Part shown: positions 4,832 to 52,279 of the stretch, in pieces
How positions within the stretch are numbered: position 1 is the stretch's first letter
How the letters are laid out: the number at the start of each line of letters is the position of its first letter
DNA from: Planctomycetota bacterium
Lineage (GTDB): Bacteria; Planctomycetota; SZUA-567; H5-PLA8
Assembly: GCA_016200135.1 (NCBI GenBank)
Contig: JACQFI010000030.1
Span: 8,656 to 72,655, forward strand
Length of the DNA stretch: 64,000 nt
Direction of reading: 5' to 3'
Program-made: the position numbers and the translations under genes
The notes under the pieces: generated by a model
Database searches by the model: none
What the model was told of the DNA's origin: nothing
Seen by the model: the letters and a program-made list of their open reading frames with translations, nothing else

Positions 4832-5641
4832 TCAGACATCCAGAATAATCCTGGCCGCAGGAGAGATCCGGTCGTAGGTCGATTTGCGGATGCGGTCGAT
4901 TTGGCGGTCGCGCTGCTGGGCGTGTGCCGTGCAGAACGCACAGTGGATGACTCGGCGCGGCCGACGCGAACGATTCATCGTGCCCGAGTGCCAGAGATGC
5001 GCATTGAAGACCAGGACGGAGCCAGCCGGTGCGATCACGAGTTCCTCCTGCGGGTGCGGCGCTGCGGGATCGATTACGTATTGTGCCAATTCACCGGCCA
5101 TCTTGTGCGAACCGGGCACAACGCGAGTGGCTCCATTTTCAGCCGTGAATCCGTCCAGTATCCAAGCCGTGTTAACCAGGCTGTAAGGTTCATGCTCCTT
5201 CCGCGGAGCAGCATCTATATGTAGCGCCTGTTGGCCTTGCCCCGGCAAAGCGTCGCGTGCGTTGAGCGAATGGAGTTTGAACTCCGTTCCCAGGACATGC
5301 GCAATGGCCGCGAGCAGACGCGGATGGGCGTAGATGTCGTCGAAGGCCTCCCCTTCGCTTACTAGGTCGGCAAGCCGCCGCGTTCCGGCTTCGTGATTCC
5401 AGAAATCGGTATCCGAAAAACCTTTCATGTCCTCGCGCCACTTGCCGTACTTCTCGTACATGAGTTTCTCATAGGTCGTTCGCAAGGCCTCGAGCCACTT
5501 GTCGCCCATCATGCCGTGTAAGACGACGTAGCCTTTCTCGTCGAGCAACGCTCGTTCCTCGCGCGTGAGTGTTGACGGCGAGACGCCCAAGTACTTTAGC
5601 GCTTCGGAGACGGTGTTTAGAATCATGGACTTTTCTATCAT
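4832..5641 (-). CDS. phytanoyl-CoA dioxygenase (PhyH) family Fe(II)/2-oxoglutarate oxygenase
   Basis: HxD in ALHIDAAP, GATRVVPGSH, distal His in LWHSGTMNRS. Start placed at ATG 5641 (MIEKSMI), which has GGAGG about 8 nt upstream. The ORF-track GTG at 5656 is an alternative. Confidence 0.8.
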   Translation of the reverse strand: MIEKSMILNTVSEALKYLGVSPSTLTREERALLDEKGYVVLHGMMGDKWLEALRTTYEKLMYEKYGKWREDMKGFSDTDFWNHEAGTRRLADLVSEGEAFDDIYAHPRLLAAIAHVLGTEFKLHSLNARDALPGQGQQALHIDAAPRKEHEPYSLVNTAWILDGFTAENGATRVVPGSHKMAGELAQYVIDPAAPHPQEELVIAPAGSVLVFNAHLWHSGTMNRSRRPRRVIHCAFCTAHAQQRDRQIDRIRKSTYDRISPAARIILDV

Positions 5642-5791
5642 TGTGAGTTCCTCCACGAATCCAAAAGGCTGATTGAAGTCTGAAGGTCACATGAGAAAAT
5701 ACCATCTCAGCGTGTCATGTGCCATGGACTCGGCGCGCTTAGGGATGGACTTTTCGGCTCATCTCGATCATAGAGGAAGAGCCCCTTACTT

Positions 5792-6514
5792 ATGCCACGC
5801 ATACGATATGCGGGACACCCCGCGCGCCATCTGCGCTCGCTGCCGGTTCATCACCATGATGTGTGGATCGTGATTGTGTACACCTATGGGAAAGGCGCAG
5901 TGCTCTTCGCGGACGAAACCATTTCCTTCCAGCGCGGCACGGTCCTGTGCGTCCCGCCGCGCATGCCTTATGCCGAAAAGTCCTCGTGGGGCTTCAAGTC
6001 GGCCTTCATCGCCGCCGAAGATCTGGCCATGGACACGAGCCGCCCGCACCTTTTTAAAGACGAAGAGGGAATTCTTCTACGCCTAGCGCCGCTGGTCGTG
6101 GACGCCTACAACTGCGGTAGTAAGCGCACGTCGATAATCGCCGAACAGCTTTTTGGTACGCTGCTGCTTGGGCTCACGCCGGTCGAAGGAATGAAACGCC
6201 ATCCGATGGTCGAGCGCCTTCGCGAGCTCGTGCATCGACACTGGTCCGATCCGGACTTTCACGTTGGAAAAGGCTTTAATGCGCTGCCGGTCTCTCAGGC
6301 GCACCTGCGCCGAGCCTTCGTGCAGGAATGCAAGATGCCGCCGGTCGGGTACTTGCTCCGCTATCGCCTGAACCAGGCACTGCGCTTGCTTTCGATCGGC
6401 GGATTCTCGATCAAGGAGGTGAGCCAGATGTGCGGCTTCGCCGATCCGTACTATTTTTCCCGAGCCTTCCGCAAGATCGTGGGGAAGCCGCCGAGCACGT
6501 TAAACCGCAAATGA
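5792..6514 (+). CDS. AraC family transcriptional regulator (cupin-like N-terminus plus HTH)
   Basis: The C-terminus (HLRRAFVQECKMPPVGYLLRYRLNQALRLL...IKEVSQMCGFADPYYFSRAFRKIVGKPPS) is the classical AraC double HTH. Divergent from the PhyH gene. Confidence 0.88.
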   Translation: MPRIRYAGHPARHLRSLPVHHHDVWIVIVYTYGKGAVLFADETISFQRGTVLCVPPRMPYAEKSSWGFKSAFIAAEDLAMDTSRPHLFKDEEGILLRLAPLVVDAYNCGSKRTSIIAEQLFGTLLLGLTPVEGMKRHPMVERLRELVHRHWSDPDFHVGKGFNALPVSQAHLRRAFVQECKMPPVGYLLRYRLNQALRLLSIGGFSIKEVSQMCGFADPYYFSRAFRKIVGKPPSTLNRK

Positions 6515-8639: not shown

Positions 8640-8822
8640 GGACGCGCTCTATTCTTCAGCTTTCTCTTGCTGAGAAACAGTGGCCCAATCGGCCCTCAAG
8701 TAATCCCATAAATACAGACCAATTGGTATGTTAACACCTGCCTTTGACTTTTAGGCCATGCGAAACTGCGGTTGTCCTGTAAGATTAGGCCGTAGGTATG
8801 GTACGGACAGGACACGAGTCCC

Positions 8823-9902
8823 ATGTATCTACTTACATCCATCCGCGCGCTCTTCGTCTTGCTCGCCTTCTTCGTGGGGCTGGGCATCCAGAACGCTTTC
8901 CAACAGGAAGTCCCGCAGGAGATGTGGTTCCCGCTGCTGATGGCGGCGCTGGCGGCGTGCCTGGTGGCGGTAGAAATCGTCTTTCAGAAGAAGTACCTCG
9001 CCGGTCTGGTCGCGATCTTCTTCGGGCTGATCCTGGGCCTGGTGGCCACGTTTATCACGACGCTGCTGTTGGCTTTCCTCCTGCCGCCGGCGTATTACTC
9101 GGAATTCATCCGCCCGCTCGTGCCCGTGATCTCGCTGTTTCTCTGTTACCTTGCGGTCACGATCGTCTTCCAGACGCGCGACCGGCTGCGCTTCGTGGTC
9201 CCGTACATGGCGTTCTCGAACCTGGGCCGCAAGCGTGGCGGGCTGCTGCTGGATACGTCGGTGTTCGTCGACGGGCGCATCCTGGATCTCTGCCATTCCT
9301 CGCTGATCTCCGACGAACTGATCGTGCCGTCGTACGTGCTGAAGGAACTGCAGGCGCTCTCGGATTCGGAGGAGAGCATCAAGCGTGCTCGGGGGCGCCG
9401 CGGGCTGGACGTGCTGGGCAAGTTGCGCGGCAACACGCGCATGATACTGCGCATCGAGGAAGCGGACTACCCCGAGTTGAGCAGCGTGGACGCCAAGCTG
9501 GTGCGCATGGCGCGGGAGCGCGACGCGATCGTCTTAACCGGCGACCTGAACCTGGCCAAGGTTGCGCGGGTGGAAGGCGTCGAGACGATTCTGCTGCAGG
9601 AACTGGCCGTCGCATTGCGGCCGATCGTGACGCCCGGCGACCGCTTGACCGTGCACGTGCTGCGACCGGGCGAAGAGCGCGACCAGGGCGTCGGCTATCT
9701 TGAGGACGGCACGATGGTCGTGGTCGAGGCCGGGCGCGGCGTAGTGGGCCGCGACGTACAAGTGGAAGTGCAGCGGCTGCTCACGACGCACACGGGCCGC
9801 ATTGTCTTCGCGCGCATGTCCGATGGGGCCGGGCATTCGCGCGATTCGGAGAAGGGCCTCCGCCCTGCGTCCAATTCGGACGGCCGGGAACGCGTCGCCT
9901 AG
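8823..9902 (+). CDS. membrane-anchored PIN/TRAM domain protein (YacL-like)
   Basis: Four N-terminal hydrophobic helices, then PIN-like LLLDTSVFVDGRI...IVLTGDLNLAKVA, then a C-terminal TRAM-like beta domain (GDRLTVHVLRPGEERDQGVGYLEDGTMVVVE). Sits directly upstream of ispD, as yacL does in Bacillus. Confidence 0.8.
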   Translation: MYLLTSIRALFVLLAFFVGLGIQNAFQQEVPQEMWFPLLMAALAACLVAVEIVFQKKYLAGLVAIFFGLILGLVATFITTLLLAFLLPPAYYSEFIRPLVPVISLFLCYLAVTIVFQTRDRLRFVVPYMAFSNLGRKRGGLLLDTSVFVDGRILDLCHSSLISDELIVPSYVLKELQALSDSEESIKRARGRRGLDVLGKLRGNTRMILRIEEADYPELSSVDAKLVRMARERDAIVLTGDLNLAKVARVEGVETILLQELAVALRPIVTPGDRLTVHVLRPGEERDQGVGYLEDGTMVVVEAGRGVVGRDVQVEVQRLLTTHTGRIVFARMSDGAGHSRDSEKGLRPASNSDGRERVA

Positions 9903-9928
9903 GAACTCCGGGAACCCACTCTTCGCGC

Positions 9929-10786
9929 ATGAAGAAATCCAGAAAAAACCACACTTTACGCAATTCCAAGCCGAAGAGATCGGCGGCCCGGCCGGGTACG
10001 TCCGCCGAAGCCTGGGCGAGCGCGGCGGTGGTCGTCGCCGCGGGCAGTTCCACGCGCATGGGCGGGAAGGTCAAGAAGCCGTTCCTCAAGCTGCGCGGCA
10101 AGCCCGTGCTGGTCTGGACCCTGCGCGCGCTGGGCCGGGTGCCGGGGCTGCGCGAACTGGTGCTGGTGACGCGCCCGCAGGACCGCGCGCAAGCGCAGCG
10201 CGCCGCGGCGCAGGCACGGCTGCCGCGCAAGCTCAAGCTCGTCTTTGCCGACGGCGGCGCGCGGCGGCAGGATTCGGTGATGAACGGATTGCACGCGACG
10301 TCCGAGGCCTGCGGGCTGGTGATGATTCACGACGCGGCCCGGCCGTTTCCGTCGCAGGAAGCCATCGCGAAGGCGCTTGCCATCGCCCACGAGCGCGGCG
10401 GCGCGATCCTGGCCCTGCCCGTCCGCGATACGGTTAAGCGCGAACTCGACCACAACCTGCTCCCGCTGGCGCAGAAAGTCTCCGGCCAGAACCTGGGTGC
10501 GCCGGAGAGCCTGAACGGATCGCATTTCATCGGCAAGACGGTCCCGCGCAAGGGCCTCTGGCTGGCGCAGACGCCGCAGGTCTTCCGCCGTTCGATGCTG
10601 CTGGAGATGTTCGAACGCTTCCAGCGCGAGTCGCCCGCCGAGGAAGTGACCGACGATGCCGCGATCTTCGAACGCTACGGGCACGCGGTGGCGCTGGTCG
10701 AGTCCAGCATGACCAACCTCAAAATCACGCGCCCCGAGGACTTGGCCATCGCCGAAGGATATCTGCGCCTGGGTCTGGTAAAATAA
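9929..10786 (+). CDS. ispD: 2-C-methyl-D-erythritol 4-phosphate cytidylyltransferase
   Basis: VVVAAGSSTRMGG...KPFL, IHDAARPF and AQTPQVF motifs. Carries a ~40-aa insertion relative to typical IspD proteins. Confidence 0.88.
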   Translation: MKKSRKNHTLRNSKPKRSAARPGTSAEAWASAAVVVAAGSSTRMGGKVKKPFLKLRGKPVLVWTLRALGRVPGLRELVLVTRPQDRAQAQRAAAQARLPRKLKLVFADGGARRQDSVMNGLHATSEACGLVMIHDAARPFPSQEAIAKALAIAHERGGAILALPVRDTVKRELDHNLLPLAQKVSGQNLGAPESLNGSHFIGKTVPRKGLWLAQTPQVFRRSMLLEMFERFQRESPAEEVTDDAAIFERYGHAVALVESSMTNLKITRPEDLAIAEGYLRLGLVK

Positions 10787-11414: not shown

Positions 11415-14400
11415 GCGATGAACCGAATGATGAAGCCCTTGAGCGGCTGTTGCGTGATGAGCTGGCTCATGACCCGAATGCGGAGGAACACATCATGCGG
11501 AATGTCTCGGAGGCTCTGCACGCGGACCCAGCCCGTGGAACGGGCGAACGGCGCGCCGCGACGTTCCCTTTCTGGCTGATCGCGGCGGCGCTGGTGGCGC
11601 TGGCCGCGTCATTGGGCCTCTTCGCCCTCTTCCTGAATCGCAGTCGCGCGCCTAGCGAAGAGCGCGCGAAAGGCGATAACCAGACCAAGCCTGATGGAGA
11701 CGCGCGCGATCCAAACCTTGCGGCGCTTCCCATCGCGGACGAGCCCAAGCCCGGCGAGGAGATTTGGGAAGGTTATCTTTTCGAGAGCGCTGACGGGCGC
11801 CTTGAAATGGGCGAACACTGTCCGCTCCCCTGCCAGGTGATGGAAGCGGGGTCTAGAATAATCCCGAAGGAGTACGCCGAACGTCTTGCGGCGTTCGCCT
11901 GCAAGCCGGTCGGGAACTTCTTCACGTGGGTCTACGACGGCCTGCCTCCAGCCAACGCACCCGCCGAGGCCTACTCAAAAGTGCCGCGCTACCTGGTAAA
12001 GATCTGCGGCCGCATAAACCGCGCTGCCCCTCAGGACAACGCTGCAGCCGGCGTGGCCATGCGCAACCCGCGCGTGATCGAAGCGGAATTCCTGGGCGAG
12101 GAATGGCTGCGGTGTTGGGCGGACCTCGCGGCCACCGGCTACTATCCGAAAGTGGAATCTCTCCAGGATCCTCCGCCGGAACGGACGGCAGCGCAAAACG
12201 CCGCCCTGGCGCCCAAAGTGCTGGCGGCGCTCACGGCCATGCGCAAGGCGTCGGGGATCTCGGACGAATGGCGCACGAAACTTCGCGGCATCGTGCCCGA
12301 CGCGCGCGCGGTGAACCTCTTTCAACGCGGCCTTGAATTCGAGGCGCAGCGCTGGCTGGCCGATGTAAACAAGAAGCAGGACCTTAGATTGGAGGGCCTC
12401 GAAGCGCTCGGCGCACTTCCGCCTTCCCACGAGGCGCTAAAGGAACTTTTTTGTCGCTCTAGCAGTAAGCAGGACTTCTTTCTAAAGGTCGGCTCCCTTT
12501 GGTCAGGCGGTTTCGACTATGTTTCATTGAATTATGTTCGTGCCGAGTCGGGCGGCGGCACGTCATGGGCCTATACGCGGCTGGATTTGTTGCTGCGGAG
12601 TTGGAGCGAACAAGCGTTCCTCAAGGACCGTGATGCAACAAAAAAAGCGTTTGAAGAGCAATTGAAGGAAGATGAAATCCTTGTCCACCTGCAGCAACTT
12701 GACTCCGAGAACCCCAAGGAGCGAGAGAATGCGTTTGAATTTTTGAGTAAGGCCGAAGACCTGTCCACCGTCGCCGCACGCCTGGATGGAATTGCGGCAA
12801 AGCAGAAAGATGCGGCGGCAAGAGAGCGTATCGAAGAACTCCGCCTCCGCTTGGCCGGTCCTGTGGCCGCCGTGTTAAATTCGGAGATTCAAGCAAGGGT
12901 GGCGATGAGAAACAATAAGTCGGACGAGGTTCTCTTTTTGGATGGAAGTCCCAGTCGGGTTGCCAAAGGCCGCAAACCCTCCTTCCAGTGGAAACAAACG
13001 GGCGGTGACGACTTGAAGCTTGACGCGAAATCTCTATCCAAAGATCGCGTGGGTTTGAGGATTTACGAGCCTGGCACGTACCGGTTCGAGTTGCTCGTGC
13101 AAGATGGGATACGCGAAAGCACGCCTGTTTCGATAACCATGATTGTAAAGGACGAAATTGAAGCCGCGCCCGCGCCGAAAAAGCGCGAGCCGCAGGGAGC
13201 CGGCCATCCGGTCTACGGTGTCTACGGCGATCCCTCCAACGGCGTGGCTCTTGCCATCGAAATAAGCGTCTCGCGCTTGGGACAAATAGACGCGGGCAAG
13301 CCGATCCGCCTTTACTACGCGGTCAAGAACACCTCTGATGAAGCGCTCACGCTTCCGCACGCTGTCCTCTGGCCCGCCTACCTGCGATTTATCGTCAAGG
13401 ATGCGGACGGTAAGGTGTTGCCGCTCCTTGAAGAGGGAAAGAAGCTATTGGACCCCCAAGTCACCGCGCGCGGCAAGATCGGCCCGCCCAATCTTCCTCT
13501 GCCGCCCCGAAGCATCATCGAAAGCATGGGCGGGGCCGAATTGGCCCAACTCTTCGACCTGTCGATACCCGGCAACTACACCTTGCAAGTGATTTACGAA
13601 GAGACCGACGGCGAAGGCTGGCATGGCAAGGCCGCATCGAACACCGTGAACTTCGAAGTCGTTAAGGGAGGGGGAAAGGAAGAGGCCCAGTTGAAATGGG
13701 TGGAGTTCGCCCTCAGCACGCCCGAGCATCTTGACGATTGGAAGCGGATCAAAGCCGACTTGGAGTCCGATGGCGTGCGCTGCGCGGAAGGCGCAGTCCA
13801 CCTTGGCACCTTTTCGCTCCTCGTCGATGCCCGGGACTGGGAGAAGGCGGTAAATGCCACCCAGAAGTGCATCGAGAAAAACGCTTTAACCGTGCGCATC
13901 CATTCAAAAGAAGACGAGGAAGCGTACCAGGTCTTCGAGAAGGGAAAGCTTCTACGAGAAGAATTCTATGCCAGCGAGTACAAGCTTCCTTCGCGGCGCA
14001 TGTTGTTTCTAGTGGTTCCGCAAGACCCGGAAAAGCGCAGCGGACTTTACGCGCTTTCTCCATGGGACGAGACGGTAGCGGCACCGCTTCAGACGCTGTT
14101 TACGCAAGCGGCGGATGGAAAGCTGCAAGGCCCCGTGGCGGGAGCAGCCGTCATTCTCGTCGGCAAGCTTCCGGGCGAAGTGGGAGGATGGGGCGACTTC
14201 TTCGTTTCGGAACCCGGGCTGATCTCGAAGGGCGTCATTAAACTTCAAGCGCGGTACGTCGAATATGTCGGAGTTAAAGCGGGAGAGGCCATGCCTAAAC
14301 ATGCCTACGTTCGAATCGATTTACCCTCCCTGCCGGCGGGGAAATACGAAGTGAAGCTCTCGTTCTCGAACTACTCGTTTGAAGGCGATTGGACTAAGCT

Positions 14401-27455: not shown

Positions 27456-29233
27456 ATACCGAAATGAACGACCAGTTGCGTGAACTCATGATGGACGTGC
27501 TCTCCGGGGAGGCCTCGGAAGGCCGGCGCGCGGAATGGCAGGCGTTGCTCGATGCCGACCCGGCATTACGCGCTCGTTTCGAAGCACAGCAAGCTACGTG
27601 GAATGCCCTGTCCAGATTGGAGGCTGCCATGCCGACGGAATCGACCGAGCGCCACTTGGAAAAGCAGGTTTTATCCGCCGTACAGAACGAATTGGGGAAG
27701 GCCGCTGCGCCGGAAGTCCGTACGGCGGACCGGAAGGCTTCCGGACCGGCTGTTCGAACGCCTTCCCGCAGGCTGACGTTCATCCTGGAAGCCGCGGCGG
27801 TCGTGCTCGCGGCGGTCCTGGCCTGTTCCGCGTGGATCGCCTATCACAACCCGAAAAACACGACGCAAAAGGAAGAGCTTCCCAAGAAGGACCTCGCCAC
27901 GCCACTCGATGCCAAGGTGCTGCTCGCGCTGAACGACCCTGAAGACCCTTGGAAAGCCGAGATCCGCAAGAGACTCTCACGTCACGTCTCGTTTGAGTTT
28001 GTGGATACGCCCCTAGAAGAGGCCATCGCTTTTTTGGACAGTCTGACAAAGGTCAATTTCATTCTCGATCCAAAGGCTTCCGCAAAGGGCGACGGAAAAA
28101 TTCCGATCACGCTGCGCGTAGCGGATATGGAATTGGAGACGGCGCTGGCCTGGATCCTGCGGCTCGCCAACATGGAGTACGACCTGCGCAATCAAGCGGT
28201 GTTTATTTTCAGACCAGACCCTGTCATGCCGAAGGCAACCGCCCAGGCACAGTCCTTGCCGGAGGCCATCCAAGCCAAAATGAGCCGCAAGATTACGTTA
28301 GATTTCAAAGATACGCCTCTCGACGAAGCCATATCCTTCCTTCGCAGTTTGACCAACATCACGATCATCCTCGATCCCAAACTCCAGCAGGCGGGCACAA
28401 CTGGAATCTCACTGGCCGTTAAGGATCTGCCCATAGGTGAAGTGCTAAAGAAAATCTTGGAGAAGGCGAACGCGAAGAGCGTATGGCTGGATAACGCCTT
28501 GTACATCACCGGAACCGAAATCCAGCCCGGCGAGGTTCCGAAACAGAATTTAGGTTCCATCCATCTCTATGCCGCGCCTCAATGGCCTGAGAAGATCAAG
28601 ACTGTGTTTGACCGCAAGGTGACCTTCGAATTCGTGGACTCGCCACTTGATGAAACGCTGAAGTTTATAAGTTCCTTGACCGGCGTCAGCATTGAGGAGG
28701 ATCCGGTCGTCTCGAAGAATGGCCAACCCCGTATAAACCTGCGCGTAACAAACATGTCGGCGGGTTTGGCGCTGGAATGGATTATGAAACTTGCAGACGC
28801 GCGAAGTTACGTGAAGGACGGCAAAATCGTGGTTGCAGCCAGGCTTCTGGAGCTAAATGAATCTCTGCCCAAGCAGTCGAGCCTTGAAGATCGCTTGGCC
28901 GCGTTGGCGATCCTTGAGACGCCCCGGCTGACGCGCAAGGCCCTGCTGGAGGTGATCGCGCGGGATGCGGGCATCGATCTGGACCTCAGCGCCTTGCCGC
29001 CCGAGTTGGCTGGAGAGGCCGTGAATGCGCCCTCGGAAGAAGTCCCCGTCGCCCGCTTTCTGGCTCGAGCGGTGTTGCACGCCAATCCCGTCCTCGTGGT
29101 GGAACGGAAAGGCGCGAAGCTGTTCGTTCGGCCGGCCGGCGCGGGCGAGACTCCCACCGTGGATGTGCAAGATGCTCCAGCCGCCAAGTCCGTTTCGCAA
29201 AAGCCCGCGCCTCCGCCCCAGGAAGACTTTTAG
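27452..29233 (+). CDS. anti-sigma-like membrane protein with three or four STN/secretin-N-like repeats
   Basis: The N-terminal ~60 aa form a helical anti-sigma-like domain. TM helix LTFILEAAAVVLAAVLACSAWIAY. Followed by repeated ~85-aa modules (VSFEFVDTPLEEAIAFLDSLTKVNFILDP / ITLDFKDTPLDEAISFLRSLTNITIILDP / VTFEFVDSPLDETLKFISSLTGVSIEEDP). Confidence 0.75.
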   Translation: MNTEMNDQLRELMMDVLSGEASEGRRAEWQALLDADPALRARFEAQQATWNALSRLEAAMPTESTERHLEKQVLSAVQNELGKAAAPEVRTADRKASGPAVRTPSRRLTFILEAAAVVLAAVLACSAWIAYHNPKNTTQKEELPKKDLATPLDAKVLLALNDPEDPWKAEIRKRLSRHVSFEFVDTPLEEAIAFLDSLTKVNFILDPKASAKGDGKIPITLRVADMELETALAWILRLANMEYDLRNQAVFIFRPDPVMPKATAQAQSLPEAIQAKMSRKITLDFKDTPLDEAISFLRSLTNITIILDPKLQQAGTTGISLAVKDLPIGEVLKKILEKANAKSVWLDNALYITGTEIQPGEVPKQNLGSIHLYAAPQWPEKIKTVFDRKVTFEFVDSPLDETLKFISSLTGVSIEEDPVVSKNGQPRINLRVTNMSAGLALEWIMKLADARSYVKDGKIVVAARLLELNESLPKQSSLEDRLAALAILETPRLTRKALLEVIARDAGIDLDLSALPPELAGEAVNAPSEEVPVARFLARAVLHANPVLVVERKGAKLFVRPAGAGETPTVDVQDAPAAKSVSQKPAPPPQEDF

Positions 29234-41131: not shown

Positions 41132-42439
41132 TCAGCCCTGCCGCTTGAGCGCCCGGTGCGCGATGTCCTTGCGATACTGCGCGCCGTCGAAGGAAATCTT
41201 CGCCACGCCCTGATACGCGCGCTCGACGGCCATCTGGAGCGTCGCGGCGGTGGCGGTGACGCCCAGCACGCGGCCGCCGGCCGTGGCAACGCGGCCTTCC
41301 GCTGCCTTGGCCGTGCCGGCATGGAAGACGGTGACGTCGGGCAGGCCCACCTGGCCGCTCGCATCCAGCCCCGAGATCGCCGCGCCCTTCTTGTACGCTC
41401 CCGGATAGCCGCCCGCGGCCATCACGACGCAGACCGCCGGATCGGACGAGATCTCCACGCCGTTCTCTTCGAGTTTACCCTGCTGAATCTTCTCGATGAT
41501 GTCCACCAGGTCGCCCTTCAGGCGCGGCAGGATACACTGGCATTCGGGGTCGCCGAAGCGGCAGTTGTATTCGAGCACTTTCGGGCCCGCATCGGTGAGC
41601 ATCAGGCCCGCGTAGAGCACGCCCTTGTACGGGCGTTCCTCGCGGTTCATCGCGTGCAGGGTCGGCACGAGGATCTCGCGGACGATGCGGTCCTCGACTT
41701 CGGGCGTGACGCACGGTGCGGGCGAGTACGCCCCCATTCCGCCTGTGTTCGGGCCCGTGTCGCCGTCGCCGATGCGCTTGTGGTCCTGCGCGCTCGGCAG
41801 CAGCGCGATCGTCTGGCCGTCGGTCAGGCACAGGACGCTCGCCTCTTCGCCCTTCAGCGTCTCTTCGACGATCACTTTCGCACCGGCCTCGCCGAAGGCC
41901 TTCTCGACCATCATCTGCTTCACGGCCGCGGCGGCTTCCGCGCCGTCCTTGGCCATGATCACGCCCTTGCCCGCCGCCAGCCCGTCGGCCTTCACCACCA
42001 GCGGCCCGCCGTGGTCCTGGCAATACTTCAGGGCTTTATCGGAATCGGTGAACGCCTGGAACTCCGCCGAGGGAATACCGTGCTTGCGCAGCAGCGTCTT
42101 GGTGAAGGTCTTGCTGCCTTCCAGTTCCGCGCAGCGCTGCGAGGGCCCGAAGCAGTTCCAGCCCTCGGCCTCCCAGCGGTCCGCGACGCCCAGCACCAGC
42201 GGAGCCTCGGGGCCGATCACGGTCAGGTCGATGCGTTCGCGGCGTACGAACCGCGCAAGGCTGTCCAGGTTCTCGGAAGTGATGTCGATGCACTCGACCG
42301 CGCCGCACTTCTCGCCGCGCGTGAGCGCGATGCCGGCGTTGCCCGGCGCGCAATAGAGTTTGGTGACGCGGGAGGACTGCGCGAGTTTCCAGCAGAGCGC
42401 GTGCTCGCGCCCGCCCCCGCCGACGACCAGAATCTTCAT
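41132..42439 (-). CDS. purD: phosphoribosylamine--glycine ligase
   Basis: Start at ATG 42439 (MKILVVGGGGREHAL). ATP-grasp motifs and GDTGPNTGGMGAYSPAP. About 435 aa. Confidence 0.93.
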   Translation of the reverse strand: MKILVVGGGGREHALCWKLAQSSRVTKLYCAPGNAGIALTRGEKCGAVECIDITSENLDSLARFVRRERIDLTVIGPEAPLVLGVADRWEAEGWNCFGPSQRCAELEGSKTFTKTLLRKHGIPSAEFQAFTDSDKALKYCQDHGGPLVVKADGLAAGKGVIMAKDGAEAAAAVKQMMVEKAFGEAGAKVIVEETLKGEEASVLCLTDGQTIALLPSAQDHKRIGDGDTGPNTGGMGAYSPAPCVTPEVEDRIVREILVPTLHAMNREERPYKGVLYAGLMLTDAGPKVLEYNCRFGDPECQCILPRLKGDLVDIIEKIQQGKLEENGVEISSDPAVCVVMAAGGYPGAYKKGAAISGLDASGQVGLPDVTVFHAGTAKAAEGRVATAGGRVLGVTATAATLQMAVERAYQGVAKISFDGAQYRKDIAHRALKRQG

Positions 42440-42565
42440 GCACGCCTCCGGAACAGACGACCTCAAATCGCTTCGGCACACTCGAATCTAAGCCCGCCCT
42501 GAGCGTGCATCCAGAAGTTTTCGAGCCACGTCTAAAATCTTGCGCGAGTGGGTTATACTGTCGTG

Positions 42566-42934
42566 ATGGAGACAGGCAAGCCGCGCCGCTGGTTCCAGCT
42601 TCACCTATCCACGTGCGTGGCAATGATGCTTATCGCGGCTGGACTGTTGTGGCTAAACGTAAGGCCAATCACAAACCCAATGTGGGAAGGCGCTGAACTG
42701 GATTTTCTTACCGGATATGGTTGGCCTTTGATTCATTATTATGTGCCAAATGGTAATTTGACGCTGGTAGATTTAGCGTTTGCAGGAATTGAACATGATC
42801 CGTCAAGCAGAGTGCTATGGTTTCGAGCATTGGTTAATGGAATAGTCTTTCTACTCTCAGTAATAGCAGTGGCAGGTATTTTCGAATTACTGCTGGGCCG
42901 CTTTTGCAACCCAATTGTCAATCGTCAATTGTAA
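42566..42934 (+). CDS. small hypothetical membrane protein (low-GC gene)
   Basis: ATG 42566 (METGKPRRWFQLHLSTCVAMMLIAAGLLWL). A second TM helix lies near the C-terminus (IVFLLSVIAVAGIFELLL). Clearly AT-richer than the neighbouring genes. Confidence 0.55.
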   Translation: METGKPRRWFQLHLSTCVAMMLIAAGLLWLNVRPITNPMWEGAELDFLTGYGWPLIHYYVPNGNLTLVDLAFAGIEHDPSSRVLWFRALVNGIVFLLSVIAVAGIFELLLGRFCNPIVNRQL

Positions 42935-43057
42935 ATCGTCAATTCACTCGCCTGGGATTCCTTCCTTCCCCGGCCGCTTCGCAGGCTCGATGATCCCTTC
43001 CAACGGGCTGCTGGCGGTCGCGTAGAGTTTCTTCGCGATGCGCCCGCTGCGCGCGGC
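42913..43057. repeat. left 145-bp direct repeat (displaced copy of the thiG 3' end)
   Basis: Ungapped alignment with 44656-44800 at a constant offset of 1743 bp. 132/145 positions identical by manual count. Confidence 0.9.
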
Positions 43058-43234
43058 CTGCACTCCTTCCGCGGGCACGTGCGGATATTCCTTGAGGAAC
43101 CCGTTCAGCGTCCCGCCTTCGGCAAACCATTCCAGCACGTGCGCCACCGAGAGCCGCGTCCCGCCGCCCAGCGTACCCGAGTCGCCGACGATCCACGCTT
43201 TCCCGTTGTCGAGCTTCGCTTTCCTGTTTTTCAT
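42944..43234 (-). CDS. DUF433-like protein whose C-terminal 34 residues derive from a duplicated thiG tail (chimeric ORF)
   Basis: N-terminal DUF433 signature (GGGTRLSVAHVLEWFAEGGTLNGFLKEYPHVPAEGVQAA). The C-terminus ([34 protein letters not shown]) matches the ThiG C-terminus ([34 protein letters not shown]). Confidence 0.6.
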   Translation of the reverse strand: MKNRKAKLDNGKAWIVGDSGTLGGGTRLSVAHVLEWFAEGGTLNGFLKEYPHVPAEGVQAARSGRIAKKLYATASSPLEGIIEPAKRPGKEGIPGE

Positions 43235-43295
43235 GCTGCTATCTCCACACGTAAAGAATACCCTTCTTCGAAGGCCGTTACAATGGATATGTGCT

Positions 43296-44645
43296 TTAGG
43301 TTAGCCAATCCCCAGACTCAATCTTGGGCTTCAAGTATTGCTCCATGAAAGCAATATATCCGGATTTCATTGACGCATTGTCGCTTACAAATTGTCTGCG
43401 ATAACTATCGGCCATTCCTTCCAATTCAAGTTTTCCGCGTTGCGCTTCAAAGGCCTGGAGTTCTTTCTTCCAATCCTTCTTGGCGAAACATGGGTAGTGC
43501 GACATGGCGCGAAGGCGAAGCGCCCAGTGCTTCTCCCAACCTATTCGGTAATGCGCGGCATTCCCTGTTAGTTCCAGGTCTCCCGTGCGAAGCCCAAGGA
43601 AGCGAATGTCTTTCAACGCTAGTTCGCGACACTTCGCGTATGGGGCGGTCAGACCTCGCTTGAGCACCGAAAAAATAAAATAGCCCCAGGTATCGTTATC
43701 CGTGAGCAAATACACGGGCAACCTGAACTGGTCTTGGAGGTGTCTCAAAAATCTCCGCGTATGAGCGCGTGGGATTCCGCACGATCCTATGATCAACATA
43801 TCAAGGATCTTGGCGGCCCCACATGCCGCAAAAATGTTGGCTGGTGTGTTCTTTTCAACCAACAAGATACCTTGTGCCTTGCATCGAACGACCTCGAACG
43901 CATCGCCATGATCAGGAATATTCAAACCTTTTGAAATATGGTCTGCCTCTTTCTTCATGCCGTCTTGGAATCGCAGGGTCAAGGCGCCCCAAACCTTTGA
44001 ATGTGCAGCAGTCTTGGGGAGATATGGATACTCATTCTCAAAAAGGTCCTGAAAAATGCCGATTTCGTCCTCGTGAAAGGTGGAATCCTTTTCATCCGTA
44101 ATCGCGCGAAGCGAAGCCAAGGTTGGATTGTAACGCTTCCAACTATAGTAATAGCTCTGACTGAAAAGCGTCCGTGTTGGAACGGCAGTCTTTCGTGGAG
44201 TCGGCCAGCGCTTGATCCACTCGCATACGATGGGATTGAAGCCAGGCAGGAATGCAGGCGGGCGAATGCGATCATGGGGCCAATACCGCCGAATAGGCTT
44301 CCCCTTCTTGAATTCATAGACCGTCGGATCATAGGGCCACACGACCCAAACAATTTTCACACCGGCTTCGACAAGGTCTATCGCTTCATGCATTGAATTT
44401 TGATAACTATTTGTAGTGATTACGGCAAGGTCGGGACATACGCCGTGGTTTTTTCTGGACTCAATCAACCAGGATTTTGAAAGCCGGCTCTTGCGAATAA
44501 AACCTAGATCAAGTTGCTTGCAAGTGTATGGCGGCTTCTTAGGCCAAGTCCACCATCTATTTCGAAAGACGAGGCCGAGATCGTTCTTCTTGACGAACTC
44601 CGCCAGGCGAATGCGCCTCTTCATGCGAATACCCGCCGATCCCAT
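43296..44645 (-). CDS. fusion of degenerate Uma2/DUF820-like nuclease domain with Topo VI-A/Spo11-type (5Y-CAP plus Toprim) module
   Basis: Uma2-like LDLGFI...CPDLAVITT...AGVKIVWVVWPYDPTVYEF. Tyr cluster SQSYYYSW (Y165-167). Toprim Glu in GILLVEKNT (E264). IIGSCGIPRAHTRRFL. DxD in VYLLTDNDTWGY (D316/D318). IRFLGLRTGDL. KKELQAFEAQRGKLELEG. Low-GC gene. Confidence 0.65.
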   Translation of the reverse strand: MGSAGIRMKRRIRLAEFVKKNDLGLVFRNRWWTWPKKPPYTCKQLDLGFIRKSRLSKSWLIESRKNHGVCPDLAVITTNSYQNSMHEAIDLVEAGVKIVWVVWPYDPTVYEFKKGKPIRRYWPHDRIRPPAFLPGFNPIVCEWIKRWPTPRKTAVPTRTLFSQSYYYSWKRYNPTLASLRAITDEKDSTFHEDEIGIFQDLFENEYPYLPKTAAHSKVWGALTLRFQDGMKKEADHISKGLNIPDHGDAFEVVRCKAQGILLVEKNTPANIFAACGAAKILDMLIIGSCGIPRAHTRRFLRHLQDQFRLPVYLLTDNDTWGYFIFSVLKRGLTAPYAKCRELALKDIRFLGLRTGDLELTGNAAHYRIGWEKHWALRLRAMSHYPCFAKKDWKKELQAFEAQRGKLELEGMADSYRRQFVSDNASMKSGYIAFMEQYLKPKIESGDWLT

Positions 44646-44655
44646 TCTGACGGCA

Positions 44656-44800
44656 AATCGTCAATCGTAAATTGTAAATCGTCAATTCACTCGCCCGGAA
44701 TTCCTTCCTTCCCCGGCCGCTGCGCGGGCTCGATGATGCCTTCCCACGGGCTGCTGGCGGTTGCGTAGAGTTTCTTCGGGATGCGGCCGCTGCGTGCAGC
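44656..44800. repeat. right 145-bp direct repeat (functional 3' end of thiG plus ~30 bp downstream)
   Basis: See the left repeat. Both copies begin with a doubled AATCGTCAAT(T/C) 11-mer. Confidence 0.9.
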
Positions 44801-45508: not shown

Positions 45509-45525
45509 CGGTGACTCCTCAGATT

Positions 45526-45600
45526 AAAACGTAAAGCGTAAAACATAAGCACAGCTTCGGCATCGAGCTTCTGATTATTACGTTTTACACTTTATGTTTT
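45526..45600. repeat. AT-rich 23-bp inverted repeat in the thiS-thiG spacer
   Basis: AAAACGTAAAGCGTAAAACATAA (45526-45548) pairs with TTACGTTTTACACTTTATGTTTT (45578-45600). 20 Watson-Crick pairs plus 1 wobble out of 23, with a 29-nt loop. Confidence 0.7.
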
Positions 45601-45617
45601 GCGCAAAGTCTTTTCGC

Positions 45618-45830
45618 TCACCCACCCCCCACAAACGAAACCACTTCCACCCGGTCGCCTTCGCAGAGGACTTTCGCGGCCCACTCCTTCTTGACGACCA
45701 GTTCCTTGTTCACTTCCACGGCGACGCGCTTCTGGCCCAGGCCCAGCACGTCCACCAGCGCGGCCACGGTCGTGCTGGCGGCGCACACCATGGGCTTCCC
45801 GTTCACGTGTACGGTCATCGGCGCGGTCAA
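45618..45830 (-). CDS. thiS: sulfur carrier protein ThiS
   Basis: 70 aa, ubiquitin-like beta-grasp pattern (VNGKP...VAVEVNKELV...GDRVEVV), C-terminal GG. Directly upstream of thiG. Confidence 0.88.
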   Translation of the reverse strand: MTAPMTVHVNGKPMVCAASTTVAALVDVLGLGQKRVAVEVNKELVVKKEWAAKVLCEGDRVEVVSFVGGG

Positions 45831-51311: not shown

Positions 51312-51731
51312 TCAGTCCACTGCGCCGCCCTCGGCGGCCCGGCGCTCGCGGGGGGCACGCTGCGGGAGCGCCCGGTCGCAGAGTTCGAGGATGGCGGCGG
51401 CGAGGTCTTCGAGGCGGAAGGGTTTGGTGAGCATCAGGCTGCCGAACTCGGTGCGGCCCTGCGGGCCCGTCAGCGGACCGGTGAAGATAAAGCGCCGGCG
51501 CAGGGCCGGGTCGATCTTCACGGCTTCGCGGAAGACGGCCTGGGCGTCCATGCCGGGCAGGTGCGCGTCGATCAGCACGACATCGACATGCGTCGTCCGC
51601 AAGACCTTCAGCACGTCCTGCCCTGTGGCGACCGGGATCGCGGCCAGATCGAGTTCGGCCAAGTAATCTCGCAAAAGGTCGCGAATGGCCGGCTCCTCGT
51701 CCGCTACCAGCACGACGAGGGATGTATTCAT
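51312..51731 (-). CDS. stand-alone response regulator receiver domain protein
   Basis: VLVADEEPAIRDLL, VDVVLIDAHLPGMD (phospho-acceptor Asp region), and FTGP in place of the K-P motif region. 139 aa with no output domain. Confidence 0.8.
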   Translation of the reverse strand: MNTSLVVLVADEEPAIRDLLRDYLAELDLAAIPVATGQDVLKVLRTTHVDVVLIDAHLPGMDAQAVFREAVKIDPALRRRFIFTGPLTGPQGRTEFGSLMLTKPFRLEDLAAAILELCDRALPQRAPRERRAAEGGAVD

Positions 51732-52096
51732 GAGGGGCCGCCTAGGGTTGCTTTCAATTAGAACGAGCCAGCCCGTTCGTAGTCCGTTTGGTTGGTAAAA
51801 AGCAGCCAGAGTATATAAGGCTTAGGTTCCTTTTCGTCAATCCTTTGATGGGCCGCACCGCTGTAAAATTAGCCTTTACGCAATGTGCTTGTCCCAAAAA
51901 CGATGACGCAAATTGGGACACGGAGTATCTTCAGTGGCGATCACAGCTCCAGTAGGATTATTTTTTCATTTGCTAAGACATGCACCAAACGATATTTATA
52001 TGTACGCGCAGCGAAGATTTCTACGGTCTTGGGACGAGCAATACGTGCGGCCTATCCTTTGCGGTGGTAAGATATTAGAATTGGGGGAGTTGCAGT

Positions 52097-52279
52097 ATGG
52101 CGACCGCCTTTAAAAACCAACTTCGGCAGCTTCGCGAGAAAGCCGGCTTAACCCAATCTCAATTGGCGAAGATCCTGGGCTGTTCGCCGCCGCGGATTTC
52201 CGAATGGGAACGCGGCGTCCGCACGCCTAAGCCCCTCACGCAGGAAGCCATCGTCGCCAAGCTCAAAAAGCACGCCTAA
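52097..52279 (+). CDS. XRE-family helix-turn-helix protein (60 aa)
   Basis: LRQLREKAGLTQSQLAKILGCSPPRISEWERGVRTP is a canonical Cro/C1-type HTH. GGGGGAG lies upstream of the ATG. Sits in an AT-richer patch. Confidence 0.7.
   Translation: MATAFKNQLRQLREKAGLTQSQLAKILGCSPPRISEWERGVRTPKPLTQEAIVAKLKKHA

Follow-up and report, generated by a model that had tools for sequence, protein, structure and literature searches.

The subject of this work is the interval between thiG and purD in a 64,000-nucleotide stretch (hereafter the window) of a Planctomycetota bacterium (GenBank assembly GCA_016200135.1, contig JACQFI010000030.1, positions 8,656 to 72,655 of the forward strand), where a 145-bp direct repeat of the thiG 3′ end brackets additional coding sequence. 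The window is a chromosomal stretch rich in guanine plus cytosine (GC, ~0.64), its nearest relatives are Planctomycetota metagenome-assembled genomes, and its thiG is 82-92% identical to those of relatives L001-L010 and L030 (related contigs are referred to by L numbers). On the minus strand thiS and thiG are followed by an open reading frame (ORF) of 449 amino acids (aa), called here the cargo gene, and by one of 96 aa; next come a plus-strand ORF of 128 aa, apparently for a membrane protein, then purD and a Sua5-like gene (Table 1). The synteny of thiG with purD-sua5 is also present in L030/L082, and every other ORF identified by homology between 39.9 and 47.1 kb is a housekeeping gene.

Table 1 Features of the thiG-purD interval and its flanks in window coordinates
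Feature	Position	Strand	Basis or remark
thiS	45618-45830	-	ORF listing and Pfam scan
thiG (thiazole synthase), 273 aa	44687-45508	-	Pfam ThiG, 6e-107
Right repeat copy	44656-44800	-	last 37 thiG codons and stop (44687-44800) plus 31 nt of heptamer array; continuous with thiG ORF
Heptamer tandem array, right copy	44655-44686		between thiG stop and cargo start; period 7, 4.6 copies
Cargo gene, 449-aa ORF: Uma2-like N-domain and tyrosine-less Topo VI-A-like part (partial CAP and Toprim)	43296-44645	-	Pfam, Foldseek
Uma2/DUF820-like N-region of cargo, residues ~8-150	44196-44624	-	Foldseek to TT1808, Ava_3926
Chimeric 96-aa ORF: DUF433 N-part and thiG-tail C-terminus	42944-43234	-	Pfam DUF433
DUF433 part of 96-aa ORF	43058-43234	-	Pfam; host-like composition
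Left repeat copy	42913-43057	-	displaced thiG tail and heptamer array, read as C-terminus of DUF433 ORF
Heptamer tandem array, left copy	42912-42943		period 7, 4.6 copies
Small membrane-protein ORF, 128 aa	42548-42934 (likely start 42566)	+	ORF listing
purD	41132-42439	-	Pfam GARS_N/A/C; conserved left flank of variable interval

Both blastn and direct count give the repeat as a gap-free match of 132 out of 145 positions at an offset of 1743 bp, the only repeat family returned by the repeat search, and the longest exact run shared by its copies is 26 nt. In the right copy thiG has its working 3′ end; the left one is a displaced duplicate of the same tail that forms the 3′ end of the 96-aa ORF; in extent, identity and gene context the repeat is exactly as described in a first-pass annotation made from the sequence alone. 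Past the thiG-internal end (43057/44800) the identity of the flanks drops to 9/40. Past the opposite end (42913/44656) it is 19/40, possibly a weak extension.

The two thiG tails differ by eight synonymous and three non-synonymous changes, which gives 0.37 synonymous substitutions per synonymous site (dS), 0.037 non-synonymous substitutions per non-synonymous site (dN) and a dN/dS of 0.10; for scale, thiG dS between species is 0.55 for the window and L001 and 0.24 for L002 and L086. Both tails carry a lineage-specific 6-nt insertion absent from all sampled relatives, are equidistant from these relatives and are closer to each other than to any of them. Just one change, from W to L in the left copy, affects a residue that all examined relatives conserve. 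Since decay in place predicts mainly non-synonymous changes and the observed ones are mostly synonymous, the tails resemble two orthologous working ends, and they probably evolved as such in separate lineages and not by decay of one copy beside the other (rough likelihood ratio of about 5).

The part of the repeat that lies beyond the thiG stop belongs to a tandem array of a 7-nt unit, detected with Tandem Repeats Finder. The first-pass annotation had read it as a doubled 11-mer and a possible protein-binding site, a suggestion that does not survive comparison with other genomes. In nearly all relatives the thiG stop is directly followed by a heptamer array of a different unit, whether cargo is present or not, and L104, from a related organism (PurD 88% identical in aa), carries the same array (28/31 identical) 3′ of its membrane-protein gene, followed by a different gene, with no thiG in that 1.3-kb contig. 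The array therefore appears to mark the native junction of thiG and the membrane-protein gene, and not a binding site specific to any element. In the window the last codons and the stop of the membrane-protein ORF fall within the left repeat copy, these last codons being part of the array. Hairpins in the arrays of the two repeat copies are not significant (z -0.3 and -1.5); strong ones are predicted in the thiG flank of L001 (z -11; 8817-8925) and in the thiS-thiG spacer of the window (z -3.4; 45509-45617). Short-period arrays, mostly heptamers with a unit that differs per genome, occur clade-wide after stop codons or between genes, often together with an inverted array, so that long hairpins are formed. 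Further examples are located in L102 (1-106) and L083 (7451-7642), and in L102 (TGCGGAT)x15 lies just upstream of a fused Uma2-Toprim gene.

Residues 25-61 of the 96-aa ORF match DUF433 (PF04255; 1.1e-8, 35.2 bits against a gathering threshold of 23.6) over profile positions 16-52 of 56. The native last few residues of the domain are replaced by the thiG tail, which starts at about residue 60 and is in frame with DUF433. Homology of the whole 96-aa ORF to ThiG has been rejected as a BLAST extension, identity outside the 37-aa tail being an estimated ~25%. The composition of the interval is mosaic: GC at third codon positions (GC3) equals 0.90 in thiG, 0.55 in the cargo gene (overall GC 0.495), 0.81 in the DUF433 part (GC 0.63), 0.82 in the tail, 0.45 in the membrane-protein ORF (GC 0.46) and 0.89 in purD. 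There are two AT-rich blocks, one within the repeats and one outside, with host-like DNA between them. The first-pass description of the bracketed DNA as AT-rich thus holds for the cargo gene only; it fails for the DUF433 part and leaves out the AT-rich 128-aa ORF, which is situated beyond the repeats.

The cargo gene, the likely true start of which is at 44624 (MKRRIRL), encodes in its C-terminal part a TOP6A/Spo11 Toprim domain (PF21180, 1e-25) related to the A subunit of topoisomerase VI (Topo VI-A), as also indicated by a sequence match to Top6A of S. shibatae (PDB 2zbk, 2e-22). An AlphaFold2 model of the protein (predicted local distance difference test score 76.7, above 90 over the Toprim part and poor for residues 1-70) matches Topo VI-A and Spo11 structures in Foldseek (E 1e-14). 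The Toprim residues E264 and D316-N-D318 are intact, and the family keeps the motifs LLVEK and DNDTWG (alignments A2 and A3). Whichever of the two plausible alignments to canonical Top6A is used, the residue in place of the catalytic tyrosine is D, S, N, Q or H, and the only conserved tyrosines of the family are structural ones in WGY and YxCF. The family does not match PF04406, the 5Y-CAP domain with its R-x-x-Y/F-Y motif, and the cargo protein reaches an NCBIfam topoisomerase score of 103 against a cut-off of 531. No adjacent B subunit (GHKL ATPase) is encoded at the window locus or at the related loci examined. Without this tyrosine the protein cannot perform tyrosine-linked cleavage and religation as a recombinase would, and it has been rejected as a recombinase of Spo11 type.

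At the N-terminus about 100 residues match TT1808/DUF820 structures in the model (Foldseek probability 1.00, E 4e-3 to 2e-2), within a region that includes the low-confidence residues 1-70. This likens them to Uma2 (DUF820, PF05685), a family of putative PD-(D/E)xK endonucleases represented among the matches by TT1808 and Ava_3926, and the N-region is 24% identical to the separate, Pfam-annotated Uma2 gene of L082. A difference is that the window protein gives no hit to the Pfam Uma2 model at E 0.1 and that the motif, which we take to be PD...E-x-S, reads PDLAVITTNS, its acidic residue apparently replaced. The Topo VI-A-like and DUF433-like identities proposed for the two ORFs in the first-pass annotation agree with the Pfam matches. 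In a profile search of 1.84 billion representatives roughly 100 clusters (50% identity) of the short form were found and about nine with an N-terminal extension; the Uma2 plus Toprim family is rare and apparently undescribed in the literature searched. No earlier description of Uma2 fused with a domain of Topo VI-A type is known to us.

A gene of the cargo family is also located 40-150 bp after the thiG stop, co-oriented with thiG, in four related genomes (L081, L030/L082, L002 and L086). L081 has the fused form, the closest homologue of the window cargo (49% identity). In L030/L082 Uma2 and Toprim are encoded separately (the L082 Uma2 gene extends into the Toprim start), and a 574-aa ORF and then purD-sua5 follow; L002 and L086 have the Toprim form only. 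The family is absent from thiG of L001 and L003 and from the sister clade L004-L010. In the thiG tree, from which the partial contig L081 was left out, the window groups with L001 and L003, and the sister group is L030 + (L002, L086). The thiG tails of L081 and L001 are identical at 118 of 120 positions, and the two contigs diverge within 6 nt of the stop, L081 having the cargo gene and L001 lacking it. None of the four related thiG loci contains a second thiG tail or bracketing repeats. Across 12 loci of the cargo family other than that of the window, members away from thiG included, bracketing repeats are missing, and a DUF433 neighbour is missing from every other family locus examined.

The genes at this site are far more divergent than their surroundings. 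The low-GC cargo copies of L002 (8857-9759) and L086 (5980-6882) differ with a dS of 1.96 at 66% aa identity and dN/dS of 0.14, whereas their ThiG proteins are 99% identical and flanking dS amounts to 0.12 in thiS, 0.24 in thiG and 0.31 in the downstream 747-aa gene; judged by these rates, the two cargo genes represent ancient, functional alleles that have been exchanged at one fixed site, and not simple orthologues. The membrane-protein ORF evolves fast and is hyper-divergent relative to purD (dS 1.50 and 57% aa identity to L104, 584-979, against dS 0.51 for purD of the same pair). Because the cargo gene and the membrane-protein ORF are both hyper-divergent relative to their flanks, the thiG-purD interval looks like a hypervariable slot between conserved genes, and the 574-aa ORF in the L082 interval (8848-10572) shows that it takes different cargo in different genomes. 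This ORF contains no Pfam domain and looks by eye like a helical repeat protein; its L030 counterpart was considered as a second Toprim paralogue on account of two short DNA repeats, and the idea was rejected as the protein shows no similarity to the cargo. The L081 copy (273-1586, P0002) has lost the Toprim glutamate and DxD (LLVHS and ENT in their place), its GC is close to that of the host, and it is probably inactivated or repurposed.

We propose that chromosomal DNA of a related lineage was imported into this interval, anchored by homology in thiG and closed by an illegitimate join, a reading to which we give a probability of about 0.55. The interval would be a hypervariable accessory-gene slot of one Planctomycetota clade that has been remodelled by import in this genome. 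The imported piece would have begun within or near thiG and comprised the donor tail with its heptamers, the low-GC cargo and the initial ~59 codons of the gene that came next in the donor, encoding DUF433. One end may have been resolved by homologous recombination in thiG, the other joined illegitimately to the recipient thiG at about codon 235 (between YL and AARSG), where GCC GCG CGC AGC GG is shared; a single crossover of a circularised fragment would lead to the same product. The present thiG would then end in the donor tail, and the old tail of the recipient would persist as a remnant joined in frame with DUF433 and would have kept its native neighbours, the heptamer array, the membrane-protein gene and purD. 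No recombinase encoded by an element would be needed, and the cargo would be kept as deeply divergent alleles swapped between lineages via conserved flanks.

Import of this kind would account for the diverged repeats, the restored thiG, the in-frame chimera of DUF433 and tail (a relic or an accidental fusion), the mosaic composition and the lack of a recombinase. The 6-nt insertion shared by both tails and their equal distance from the relatives suggest that donor and recipient were close relatives, and the imported piece looks like a stretch of a relative's chromosome because a DUF433 gene, host-like in composition, is truncated at the left junction. That the other occupied sites have no repeats may be explained if exchange there could use homology on both flanks. 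From the structure of the locus, the divergence pattern, the composition and the comparative loci, which are all directly observed, we infer the order of events and which of the tails is the donor's.

A comparable process, homology-facilitated illegitimate recombination, or insertion-duplication by a Campbell-type single crossover without a site-specific recombinase, has been described for naturally transformable bacteria. It too leaves foreign DNA flanked by a duplicated anchor, with one homologous and one illegitimate junction and no recombinase gene, and the duplicated segments differ by the divergence between donor and recipient. It differs in being known from experiments, while the window case is read from sequence alone.

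Several points weigh against import. No donor-type locus combining thiG, cargo and a full-length DUF433 gene has been found (a word-based homologue search with the DUF433 part matched only itself), and no same-species empty site either, exact-protein look-ups of the window thiG and the 128-aa ORF having returned no record; the direction of events is accordingly deduced. The weak similarity at the heptamer side goes on for ~30-40 nt and could mean a longer, older duplication. The dN/dS argument, from which the rough likelihood ratio was derived, is based on 11 substitutions. Finally, the analysis covers a 64-kb window, and an integrase acting in trans may be encoded elsewhere.

That last point bears on an unlikely alternative, in which the 1743 bp constitute an integrative or mobilisable element that enters the thiG 3′ end by site-specific recombination, with the thiG-like tail of its DUF433 gene as its attachment site (attP) and with the help of a trans-acting integrase or of the Uma2/Toprim nuclease that it encodes. 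The locus has features of integrative elements that target gene 3′ ends by attP/attB recombination: direct repeats derived from the target-gene tail bracket the cargo, the target gene is intact, restored by the tail that the element would have brought, the cargo gene is low in GC, and thiG occupancy is patchy, as in L081 and L001 despite their nearly identical tails. It differs from them in having no integrase or excisionase, in the 9% divergence of its repeats over 145 bp, in the absence of repeats from related occupied sites and in that the unit is not found elsewhere. In agreement with the first-pass annotation, no recombinase domain emerged from the Pfam scan of the interval, whose three ORFs yielded DUF433 and the TOP6A Toprim and nothing else; the catalytic tyrosine, too, is missing from the cargo protein. 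The host-like composition of the DUF433 part, the generic nature of the heptamer arrays put forward as sites and the lack of bracketing repeats or a DUF433 neighbour at the other family loci also speak against an element. Neither IMG/VR viral contigs nor PHROGs nor GenBank phages contain cargo relatives, and the plasmid search gave none except haloarchaeal Top6A. Of the Campbell-type integration of a small circular element with a thiG 3′ end, as first suggested, what stands is that the incoming DNA brought its own tail; an autonomous circular element finds no support in these data.

Equally doubtful is a duplication in place that would have accompanied insertion of the cargo, produced either by replicative template switching or by a staggered break with a long target-site duplication, the copies then diverging by 9% within this lineage. 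The mutual closeness of the tails and their common lineage-specific indel are what such an event predicts, and the possible weak homology of ~30 nt beyond the repeat, into a relic of the 3′ end of the membrane-protein gene, could belong to it. The changes, however, look like those of a working gene end and not of decay, the event would be old at a dS of 0.37 although the cargo is still far from host composition, and identity falls sharply at 44656 with no gradual fading.

A free-standing homing-type nuclease is a quite improbable explanation. The Uma2/Toprim protein would cut cargo-free thiG near codon 235, repair from an occupied allele would copy the cassette, and end-joining would here have left the old tail. 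It would agree with a position that is the same in five genomes, behind a highly conserved gene, with presence and absence between the near-identical thiG tails of L081 and L001, with the degenerate L081 copy, whose GC has drifted towards that of its host, beside intact low-GC copies elsewhere, and with a repeat boundary in the most conserved part of the tail. Most family members, however, are not beside thiG, the alleles at the thiG site are anciently divergent and not recently spread, no nuclease activity or target is known, and the acidic motif of Uma2 appears to be lost.

It is highly improbable that the structure is an assembly artefact in which two strains were merged into a chimera at the thiG tail they share, although the assembly is of metagenome type and mixtures of strains occur often. 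Three Logan contigs, each assembled from a different run (L099-L101), match window positions 41761-43743 at 100% identity, and these positions cover the left copy and both flanks (the sole non-matching part, 22 nt at the end of L100, 1031-1052, is Illumina adapter). Exact runs common to the copies do not exceed 26 nt, which is below usual assembly k-mers, and the thiG-to-cargo junction is paralleled in the four other genomes.

Among known derivatives of the Topo VI-A fold, the Mini-A proteins, short relatives of Topo VI-A encoded by phages and proviruses, keep the catalytic tyrosine (RxxY/FY) and have a C-terminal xWELDAL box (PMC7671362). The cargo locus resembles them in having no B subunit nearby. 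The cargo family differs in having no conserved tyrosine there and no xWELDAL box, showing instead a Topo VI-like K-x-E-x-x-A box, and, unlike the viral Mini-A, it has no relatives in the viral collections searched and has chromosomal neighbours; membership in Mini-A has been rejected on both grounds. JetD/MksG of Wadjet, OLD/GajA and AriB are tyrosine-less Toprim nucleases of defence systems, and JetD also has a Topo VI-A-like fold. With these the cargo shares a Toprim metal site without the topoisomerase tyrosine and a patchy, island-like distribution. It differs from them in that none of the PADLOC-DB family hidden Markov models matches it at E <= 0.1 and no JetABC-like or ATPase partner is adjacent to it, and its best structural matches are true Topo VI-A and Spo11, not JetD.

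Other family members are located directly downstream of an FHA-domain gene, a fucosidase gene and RHS/YD toxin C-termini, upstream of a CbiA-family gene, or beside a pair resembling HigB/HigA, identified from sequence. The members in L094 (251-1957), L091 (1-2837) and L092 (1-2652) lie 49-73 nt downstream of RHS/YD-repeat C-termini, and these RHS/YD proteins end in a small Cys-rich domain; a glycine-zipper segment is present in the L094 RHS protein and also in an RHS-core fragment downstream of the L091 gene. The position just downstream of RHS/YD C-termini is the usual place of immunity genes.

The cargo protein may thus be a hydrolytic nuclease or a nucleic-acid-binding protein of defence, immunity or addiction type. 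Such a role would fit a metal site that is conserved where the tyrosine is gone, a Uma2 partner that recurs and the deep allelic divergence under purifying selection, as well as the low GC, the patchy presence, the one inactivated copy and the HigBA-like and RHS toxin neighbours. A bolder proposal, which we hold to be improbable, is that the Uma2 plus tyrosine-less Topo VI-A-like protein represents a new kind of selfish or defensive nuclease, kept or spread at the 3′ ends of conserved genes (here thiG) by cutting unoccupied alleles or as a diversifying defence or immunity gene exchanged via conserved flanks, in which case the repeat would be the footprint of break repair at thiG codon ~235.

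An Rfam scan of 41-47 kb gave no match, and a promoter and terminator scan gave signals no higher than expected from shuffling. Further, shorter low-GC patches (0.52-0.54) without high-GC3 ORFs are found in the window at 28201-28800, 51601-52200, 12601-13200 and 5401-6000.

The repeat is best read as an ordinary recombination scar, and repeats that look like attachment sites but come without an integrase can arise without any mobile element. The cargo family may matter more, and together with its allele swapping at fixed slots it is of moderate interest: its members descend from the subunit of topoisomerase VI/Spo11 that cleaves DNA, retain the metal site without the tyrosine and have often acquired a Uma2 nuclease-like domain, and their gene behaves as an accessory one that is swapped at fixed slots of the chromosome and is deeply polymorphic. 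Should the protein be a nuclease, it would join JetD and Mini-A as the third offshoot of the Topo VI-A fold to be tyrosine-less or B-less, and would offer a testable case of gene movement between genomes via conserved flanking genes.

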